This document shows, piece by piece, positions 55,145 through 55,761 of a stretch of 64,000 nt of DNA. The stretch's first letter is position 1, and each line of letters starts with the position of its first letter. Made by a program: the position numbers and the translations under genes. The stretch covers positions 30,194,001 to 30,258,000 of the forward strand of contig OZ024763.1 in assembly GCA_964016885.1 (NCBI GenBank). Direction: 5' to 3'. This DNA comes from Eledone cirrhosa. Its lineage: Eukaryota. The notes beneath the pieces were generated by a model. That model had not been told where the DNA came from and did not search any database. It worked only from the letters and a program-made list of their open reading frames with translations.

Positions 55145-55292
55145 ATATTGTTATACTTTGGGAGGGTCATGTTGCCAATAAGAAACACACGCACCAGTTG
55201 CTTTCACTTCAATTTATTATATATTTATAAATTTACAAATCTACAAACTTATAAATTTCTGGTTGGTTGGTTGGTTCCACAACCAGATACTT

Positions 55293-55334
<42 letters not shown>

Positions 55335-55759
55335 CAATAAATAAATAAATAAATAAACAAATAGATAAATGAACACAAACACACACAGACACCCGGATGT
55401 GGCGCATGCGCAAACTGAGCACACAACACACACACAGAAACAAAATGGCGTAGGATAGAAGAAAGGAAAGGCACAGAAACAAAGAAAGGAATCCCCAGTC
55501 ACTGAAGAGGTCACAGAGTGTGTGACGAAAGGACTATGACTATATATAAACAACTATCTGGTTGTGGAGCCAACCAACCAACCAGAAATTTATAAGTTTG
55601 TAGATTTGTAAATTTATAAATTTATAAATATATAATAAATTGAAGTGAAAGCAACTGGTGCGTGTGTTTCTTATTGGCAACATGACCCTCCCAAAGTATA
55701 ACAATATCGGTTTCAACACACGATTTCAGATAAAGAATCTTGCTAAACAAATTCAGAAA

Positions 55760-55761
<2 letters not shown>
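55145..55761 (+). mobile_element. Non-coding Penelope-like/retrozyme-like element: inverted partial terminal copy, spacer, hammerhead, 3' segment, (AT)n
   Basis: 55145-55289 is the reverse complement of 55555-55707; hammerhead at 55497-55541; both ends lie in (TA)n; homologous copy at 53395-53625. Confidence 0.65.
55497..55541 (+). ncRNA. Minimal type I hammerhead ribozyme with intact core
   Basis: agtca CTGAAGA g gtcaca-gagtg-tgtgac GAAA ggac TA tgact. Stem I agtca/tgact (5 bp), core CUGANGA, stem II 6 bp, GAAA, 2-bp stem III. Predicted cleavage after A55536. Confidence 0.8.

Follow-up and report, generated by a model that had tools for sequence, protein, structure and literature searches.

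Genomic setting of the element

The analysed window, a stretch of 64,000 bases of Eledone cirrhosa DNA, contains a 617-bp element at 55145-55761, which sits within the 5.0-kb intron 54692-59718 of a zinc-finger gene. This intron position follows from the two flanking minus-strand exons (59719-60200 and 54456-54691), which have GT/AG ends and join in frame. Each exon carries a zf-met zinc finger (Pfam, E 4.8e-4 in 59719-60200 and 7.3e-7 in 54456-54691), and with these matrin-type (zf-met/jaz) fingers the host gene is presumably ZNF385/ZMAT-like. The hammerhead ribozyme motif of the element (55497-55541, plus strand) is antisense to the host transcript.

The surrounding sequence is animal DNA rich in microsatellites: tandem-repeat masking covers 39,139 of the 64,000 bases, and the window holds 381 (TA)n tracts. 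Some of its repeats resemble octopus repeats, and a GTDB scan with a 22-mer gave 0 matches, in keeping with animal DNA. A repeat family with an (ATC)n end, SINE/LINE-like in appearance, is found at 54951-55123, 55910-56087, 62473-62681 and 63790-64000. Its copy to the left of the element stops at (TA)n and the remainder is absent from the right flank, so that the empty site cannot be rebuilt. An abundant, partly tandem family of approximately 200-250 bp occupies 9391-9710, 19496-19751, 28758-29268, 57063-57247, 57803-58026, 58611-59637 and 60828-60927. A minisatellite of five 71-73-bp copies (53967-54331) lies just downstream of the host exon, and a C2H2 zinc-finger match stands alone at 18909-19079 on the minus strand (E 9.3e-4), possibly as a LINE remnant or another exon.

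The features of the element and its related copies are listed below (PLE, Penelope-like element; pLTR, pseudo-LTR; arm A, the direct arm; arm B, the inverted arm).

55124-55148, no strand: left flanking (TA)n, the presumed target; its last 4 bases are common to the outer end of arm B
55145-55303, minus: arm B, an inverted, 5'-truncated, tail-less pLTR copy, 157/159 identical to 55541-55707 with one 8-bp indel
55296-55333, no strand: inner (TA)19 at the head-to-head junction, continuous with the TATA box of arm B
55334-55496, plus: A-rich linker, 163 bp, putative 5' part of the pLTR/3' UTR and putatively part of the element
55497-55541, plus: type-I minimal hammerhead of PLE type, passing a hammerhead descriptor and showing traits given in PMC4209133
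55541-55550, plus: TATA-like box immediately following the ribozyme; arm B has its 5' end point here
55557-55586, plus: 11-bp hairpin, kept in all three copies
55682-55762, plus: probable first 27 codons of the element's ORF, an open frame cut off at (TA)n
55708-55761, plus: "tail", 54 bp, present on arm A and copy C and absent from arm B
55762-55807, no strand: right flanking (TA)n
53392-53625, plus: copy C, solo, 5'-truncated within the ribozyme, sharing its 3' end with arm A, with (TA)n on both sides
43011-43067, plus: copy D, a diverged remnant that consists of the tail only, from a related family (score 55, best of the shuffles 24, 0/200)

Hammerhead ribozyme motif

The descriptor search revealed CUGANGA and GAAA boxes and a UH cleavage site in type-I topology at 55497-55541. 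Helix I comprises 5 bp (55497-55501/55537-55541), followed by the CUGAAGA box (55502-55508), a 6-bp helix II (55510-55515/55521-55526) in which G55510-C55526 forms the G10.1-C11.1 pair, the GAAA box (55527-55530) and a helix III of 2 bp closed by a GA loop; cleavage is predicted after A55536, at a CUA triplet. The perfect stem I, both boxes, the 6-bp stem II and the 2-bp stem III that a preliminary description of the locus had named were all found at the positions it gave. An unpaired extra G55509 between A9 and helix II had gone unmentioned there. A reading of this G as a defect was dropped, since Cervera and de la Pena 2014 (PMC4209133) list an unpaired nucleotide between 9 and 10.1 among the traits of PLE minimal hammerheads, together with G10.1-C11.1, a long helix II, a 4-5-bp helix I and a palindromic minimal helix III. 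Both helices of 55497-55541 fall within the ranges described in that paper for a long helix II (6-8 bp) and a short helix I (4-5 bp).

Hammerheads of this kind are far more frequent in the window than in randomized sequence. Four of the 17 CUGANGA sites pass the descriptor, compared with a mean of 0.01 in 100 block-wise local dinucleotide shuffles, and the strict level that 55497-55541 attains (helix II of at least 6 bp and helix I of at least 5 bp) was reached in 0/100 shuffles. As a statement about the sequence, the earlier wording of an "intact" minimal hammerhead holds. A relaxed scan returned 8 hammerhead-like motifs in the window, a count with no shuffled null behind it. One hammerhead-like motif at 35366-35410 (plus) has a 7-bp helix I, an ATAT palindrome and the U3-A8 core covariation described in PMC4209133, and at 63065-63113 (minus), between (TA)n tracts, lies a further PLE-type minimal hammerhead whose helix III contains an ACGT palindrome.

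Covariance models did not report the motif. Rfam gave no hammerhead in the whole window at gathering score, 32 weak matches with 0 hammerheads among them in 52000-57000 at E<=10, and no match in 55470-55570 at E<=10. A covariance model built from six other hammerheads of the window, on a rough MAFFT alignment with one row misaligned, likewise did not recover 55497-55541 at E<=10, which places the motif outside the family of those six.

The predicted folding energies do not favour the hammerhead fold. The hammerhead fold reaches -10.7 kcal/mol as a monomer against -12.0 for the best fold, and -23.3 against -31.2 kcal/mol as a dimer, and is the minimum-energy structure in neither case. In arm A as well as in copy C, positions 15.2-16.2 form a G-C pair, and the self-duplex amounts to only -1.7 kcal/mol; the loops GA and AA are not Watson-Crick palindromes, hence a dimer would hold a tandem purine mismatch instead. 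PLE minimal hammerheads are described in PMC4209133 as not cleaving as monomers and cleaving little as dimers, and the hammerhead of PAc needs protein in order to cleave, while insertion in vitro can do without this ribozyme (Frangieh et al. 2024, PMC11167929). Cleavage at 55497-55541 is likely to be weak and dependent on a dimer or a protein. No intact partner ribozyme of the same family was found within the window. The hammerhead is probably a passenger from the parent element and predicted to be silent here, because it would need a second copy and probably protein, has no intact partner and lies antisense to the host gene; the last two points also lead us to expect no cleavage of host RNA.

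Promoter-like region and probable coding start

The linker 55334-55496 has no second copy in the window. It contains three motifs that we presume to be ETS-like (55393-55400), NRF1-like (55402-55411) and YY1-like (55442-55450); at least two of the three occurred in 0/20000 shuffles of the linker, the motifs having been picked after the sequence was seen. A TATA-like box follows the ribozyme, and TATA is described for pLTRs in PMC3846280. The hairpin 55557-55586 is more stable than expected (z -3.24, 1/200 shuffles as good) and is paired in 33/33 cells across the three copies, with no two-sided change; on the plus strand, both changes in copy C yield G-U pairs. The idea that the tail is structured was discarded (z +0.35 to +1.15), and a pLTR intron, suggested by an acceptor-like CAG at the start of helix I, was judged unconvincing by eye.

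The frame that opens at ATG 55682 translates to MTLPKYNNIGFNTRFQIKNLAKQIQKR and is probably the start of the element's ORF, codon-position bias being the one basis for its coding status. In the comparison with 43019-43066 (16 codons, 12/16 residues identical), 8 of the 10 differences fall at codon position 3, with a binomial probability of 0.0034 for one position and about 0.01 for three, in a segment picked by BLAST. Between arm A and copy C, the ORF-start region differs at three sites, two of them synonymous and one nonsense.

Protein searches returned no homolog. A search with the 40-aa frame produced 3 candidates, and among longer proteins nothing reached E<=10; a search of 1.84 billion representatives produced 0 matches, both being weak negatives with so short a query. 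Pfam matches occurred in 4 of 95 peptides from the window (P0001 and all 94 unmasked stop-free stretches of at least 48 aa), namely three zinc fingers and one borderline match; neither a reverse transcriptase (RT) nor a GIY-YIG domain was among them.

Inverted arm and related copies

Arm B reaches from the TATA box to 26 nt into the probable ORF. The inverted duplicate that had been described upstream of the ribozyme is real, but it extends over 55145-55303 and mirrors 55541-55707 rather than ending at 55289. Contrary to the earlier proposal, it does not reproduce the extreme 3' end of the element, since it lacks 55708-55761. On the outside it stops 54 bp before the point where arm A and copy C end, in an ATAT that also belongs to the flanking (TA)n; on the inside it closes with the TATA-like box that follows the ribozyme and runs into the (TA)n at 55296-55333. 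As noted before, the element has both ends in (TA)n (55124-55148 and 55762-55807), and with the third tract, 55296-55333, inside the element, arm B itself is bounded by (TA)n on both sides. A target-site duplication is unreadable in these microsatellite flanks.

Copy C, previously placed at 53395-53625 and delimited here at 53392-53625, does retain the ribozyme's 3' half. Its 5' core may survive in degenerate form, but neither helix I nor helix II is able to form. Over the same stretch it is identical to arm A at 128/140 and to arm B at 129/140 positions and represents a different subfamily, while A and B are far closer to each other (157/159) than either is to C. It sits in the (TA)n tract (53334-53391) at the end of a composite of another family. 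Copy D aligns with the last 60 bp of the element. The 3' end falls on the identical base in A and C and at about the same place in D, and the 5' ends differ (n=3). The region 42565-43010 was rejected as an upstream part of the related element, 126/200 shuffles scoring as well; within it, an 88-codon open frame with no Pfam match (42567-42830, plus) follows an ETS-like motif at 42597.

A second hammerhead family is represented by the composite 52860-53341, which has 195-bp arms that are 99% complementary, a 4-nt loop, hammerhead cores at 53055 (minus) and 53234 (plus), and a tail of about 85 bp on the left arm only. Further members lie at 17519-17785, 50672-50970 and 52660-52842, with a loop 2 of 31-36 nt and an AT-rich palindromic helix III. 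The tails of this family share a short motif (a 16-base exact match between two of them, 0/200 shuffles).

Probable identity as a remnant of a Penelope-like element

Taken together, these features suggest, with a probability that we put at about 0.88, that 55145-55761 is a 5'-truncated, non-autonomous remnant of the pLTR of an endonuclease-bearing Penelope-like retrotransposon. The insertion would be reduced to a 3' pseudo-LTR (promoter-like linker, hammerhead, TATA box, ORF start and tail) accompanied by the head-to-head inverted partial pLTR usual for PLEs, all as one insertion. This identity is drawn from anatomy, given that the window holds no RT or GIY-YIG and no peptide homolog was found. 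The locus fits the published anatomy of PLEs point by point, and it therefore appears to be a truncated PLE end: a hammerhead, a TATA-like box and the first ORF codons (coding by codon-position bias only) are present as in a pLTR, 5' truncation goes together with a fixed 3' end (n=3), and a 5'-truncated pLTR is inverted head to head with the tail on one end.

According to Arkhipova et al. 2013 (PMC3846280), a typical Penelope insertion consists of direct pLTRs and an adjacent shorter inverted pLTR, head to head, with a tail on one pLTR, the first 12-22 ORF codons inside the pLTR and tail, and a TATATATA box. The same scheme is given by Craig et al. 2021 (PMC8557442), with (TA)n targeting and a one-sided tail of 30-40 bp, shorter than the 54 bp here; they regard the origin of the inverted and tailed structures as unresolved, attributing it generally to the cleavage properties of the endonuclease. 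Purified PLE protein has been shown to cut and extend both strands of AT-rich DNA, and its reverse transcription to start in vitro at two sites inside the ORF, which bound the tail (Frangieh et al. 2024, PMC11167929). The earlier proposal of a PLE-type insertion product is well supported by the hammerhead type, TATA box, ORF start, one-sided tail, inverted arm and (TA)n. A repeat annotation of Octopus vulgaris (PMC13282606) includes Penelope-like families, while its main text is silent on hammerheads.

Proposed insertion mechanism and alternative explanations

Four head-to-head composites were found in the window (17519-17785, 50672-50970, 52860-53341 and 55145-55761). In 4/4 of them the tail is on exactly one arm, which has a chance of about 0.06 if tails are random, and in 4/4 the end of the tail-less arm shows AT/TA microhomology with (TA)n. 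In two of the four the arms are not nested, the tail-less arm having 5' sequence that is missing from the tailed arm; this is clear at 17519-17785 and less clear at 50672-50970, where a decayed 5' ribozyme half is possible. The solo copy 52660-52842 ends at most 3 nt from the end of the tail-less arm 53147-53341.

For 55145-55761 itself, we see about an even chance that the composite arose by priming on two strands. The enzyme of the element would nick both strands of a (TA)n tract, which reads identically on both. One nick would prime reverse transcription at an outer start, the tail end at 55761, and give arm A; the other would prime at an inner start, 55707, where AUAU in the RNA would match the target 3' end, and give arm B. 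The two cDNAs would then be joined head to head via TATA/(TA)n microhomology. The tail-less outer end of arm B matches a second RT start of the kind shown in vitro in PMC11167929. As a general account of the head-to-head, one-tail structure of PLEs, symmetric twin priming, with a dimeric enzyme nicking the self-complementary (TA)n and one cDNA from each start site, is put forward somewhat more tentatively, at slightly less than even odds; if true, every composite would have exactly one tail and its arms need not nest. An explicit proposal of two strands and two starts was not found in the literature searched, which lacks most subscription papers, and older PLE reviews may hold it.

A credible though rather unlikely alternative is that the same PLE remnant arose by fold-back and self-priming, in which a tail-primed cDNA ending in (TA) annealed to its own TATA box, was copied back to 55707 and joined the left target via ATAT. 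Arm A contains the whole of arm B, whose start coincides exactly with the TATA palindrome adjoining (TA)19; the composite nearby, 52948-53341, forms a near-perfect palindrome of 195 bp around a loop of 4 nt; and palindromes at junctions are read as self-priming in PMC3846280 (Arkhipova et al. 2013). Both 55145-55761 and 52948-53341 are nested and fit fold-back equally well. However, the non-nested arms (17519-17785 clearly, 50672-50970 less so) would need extra deletions, the end of the solo copy 52660-52842 near that of the tail-less arm 53147-53341 is left unexplained, and reverse transcription starts at the tail boundary in vitro (PMC11167929). Two-strand priming is the simplest single model, because a folded-back cDNA yields nested arms only, although later asymmetric deletion of a perfect palindrome can also give non-nested arms. 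The preliminary description had favoured template switching or fold-back priming; this mechanism is only partly supported. Fold-back at TATA/(TA)n can give this locus, but the outer end of arm B matches a second start site, and one or two sister composites have non-nested arms of a kind that fold-back by itself does not produce.

It is less probable still that two separate events placed arms A and B in adjacent (TA)n tracts, each as a 5'-truncated insertion of the same young PLE subfamily, the 617-bp unit then reflecting coincidence under local targeting. Such separate insertions would be in keeping with the inner (TA)19, which gives arm B a (TA)n at both ends, as in copy C, and with local clustering: copy C lies within the (TA)n tract (53334-53391) that ends a composite of another family, PLEs tend to insert beside earlier copies (review PMC6765202), and 5.3% of window positions are at most 5 nt from a (TA)n edge. 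On the other hand, A and B resemble each other much more than either resembles C, and their orientation and one-sided tail are those of three composites without an inner (TA)n.

We also consider it quite improbable that the locus is a non-autonomous hammerhead element, an animal retrozyme monomer or SINE-like unit spread through a small RNA, that never had an ORF of its own. Such a unit would be short, with no long ORF and with a type-I hammerhead, as here; animal retrozymes are proposed to derive from PLE pLTRs (10.64898/2026.07.22.740005), and the conserved hairpin 55557-55586 suggests selection on RNA. Yet no head-to-tail repeat units were found at the locus, the common 3' end with varying 5' extent is that of truncated TPRT products, and the 3' end shows codon bias. 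Finally, a foldback DNA transposon (MITE) with terminal inverted repeats at TA and a chance or incidental hammerhead can practically be set aside: the inverted repeats are long, the flanks are TA and the window has hammerhead-free palindromes (17900-18016, 117 bp, 97%; 50977-51469, 494 bp, 95%), but the right repeat stops 54 bp before the element end, copy C has no inverted partner and the hammerhead is far above chance. These two palindromes adjoin (TA)n and may be MITE-like or fold-back products.

Possible consequences and significance

In the host pre-mRNA the arms are predicted to pair with each other (B:A, -253 kcal/mol) and arm B with copy C (B:C, -193 kcal/mol). The A:B duplex would comprise about 160 bp and lie about 450 nt from a splice acceptor. 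The 236-nt coding exon 54456-54691 has arm B on one side and copy C on the other, an inverted pair that would compete with the stronger B:A pairing. Duplexes between inverted arms could, as a candidate effect, serve RNA editing or affect splicing.

The inverted repeats and one-sided tails of PLEs are named as an open problem in PMC8557442. Young composites let models of priming be separated by counting ends across a genome, and this genome, where 64 kb hold four composites from at least two families, would allow such a direct counting test. As a feature, the element matters little: it adds a truncated PLE end to the thousands reported from animal genomes.

Comparison with known systems

In LINE-1 twin priming, both target strands prime, and the product has an inverted 5' segment with the RNA-3' end facing the left flank; its two segments are mostly non-overlapping. 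The arms described here differ in overlapping by about 160 bp, and their second start appears to be a fixed site.

The animal non-LTR retrozymes (10.64898/2026.07.22.740005) resemble 55145-55761 in being non-coding, in carrying a type-I hammerhead and in their relation to PLE pLTRs, but they are head-to-tail tandem units, whereas the element is a head-to-head solo unit. With the PLE minimal hammerheads of PMC4209133, the motif shares the type-I topology, the 5-bp helix I, the 6-bp helix II, the unpaired nucleotide between 9 and 10.1, G10.1-C11.1 and a minimal helix III. As here, these are mostly solo copies from truncated PLEs, and their occasional opposite-strand pairs, 100-700 bp apart, can be counted as a further likeness. 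Unlike the hammerheads described there, ours has GA as loop 3 (AA in copy C) and CUA as the cleavage triplet.

The Neptune, Hydra and Naiad clades described in PMC8557442 likewise have a (TA)n bias, tandem and inverted structures and a one-sided tail. Naiads are characterized there by the lack of a canonical hammerhead and by an N-terminal GIY-YIG, and the canonical core at 55497-55541 sets the element apart from them. Four motifs of the element were absent among the matches listed from the supplement of PMC8557442, where one 12-mer match fell inside an unrelated RT region.

PAc, a Poseidon element of Anolis carolinensis, resembles the locus, as far as it is described in PMC11167929, in a hammerhead near the ORF start, AT-rich targets, an element end inside the ORF and two alternative 3' ends that bound the tail. 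Compared by description only, the ORF of PAc starts inside the ribozyme, whereas the ATG here lies 140 nt after it, and reverse transcription of PAc starts about 111-118 nt into the ORF, against ends at 26 and 80 nt here. The tail region here has no stable fold, which we count as another difference from PAc.

Pen2a_Av of Adineta vaga (PMC3846280) has a direct pLTR and a shorter inverted pLTR, one tail and a TATATATA box, as does our locus, and it carries 12 and 22 aa of the ORF in pLTR and tail, compared with about 9 and 27 codons here. It differs from 55145-55761, which is without an ORF body, has a tail of 54 bp instead of 31, and shows (TA)19 and a 163-bp linker at the inner junction with no readable target-site duplication. 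Every structural feature of 55145-55761 has already been published, and the element is an ordinary truncated PLE end.
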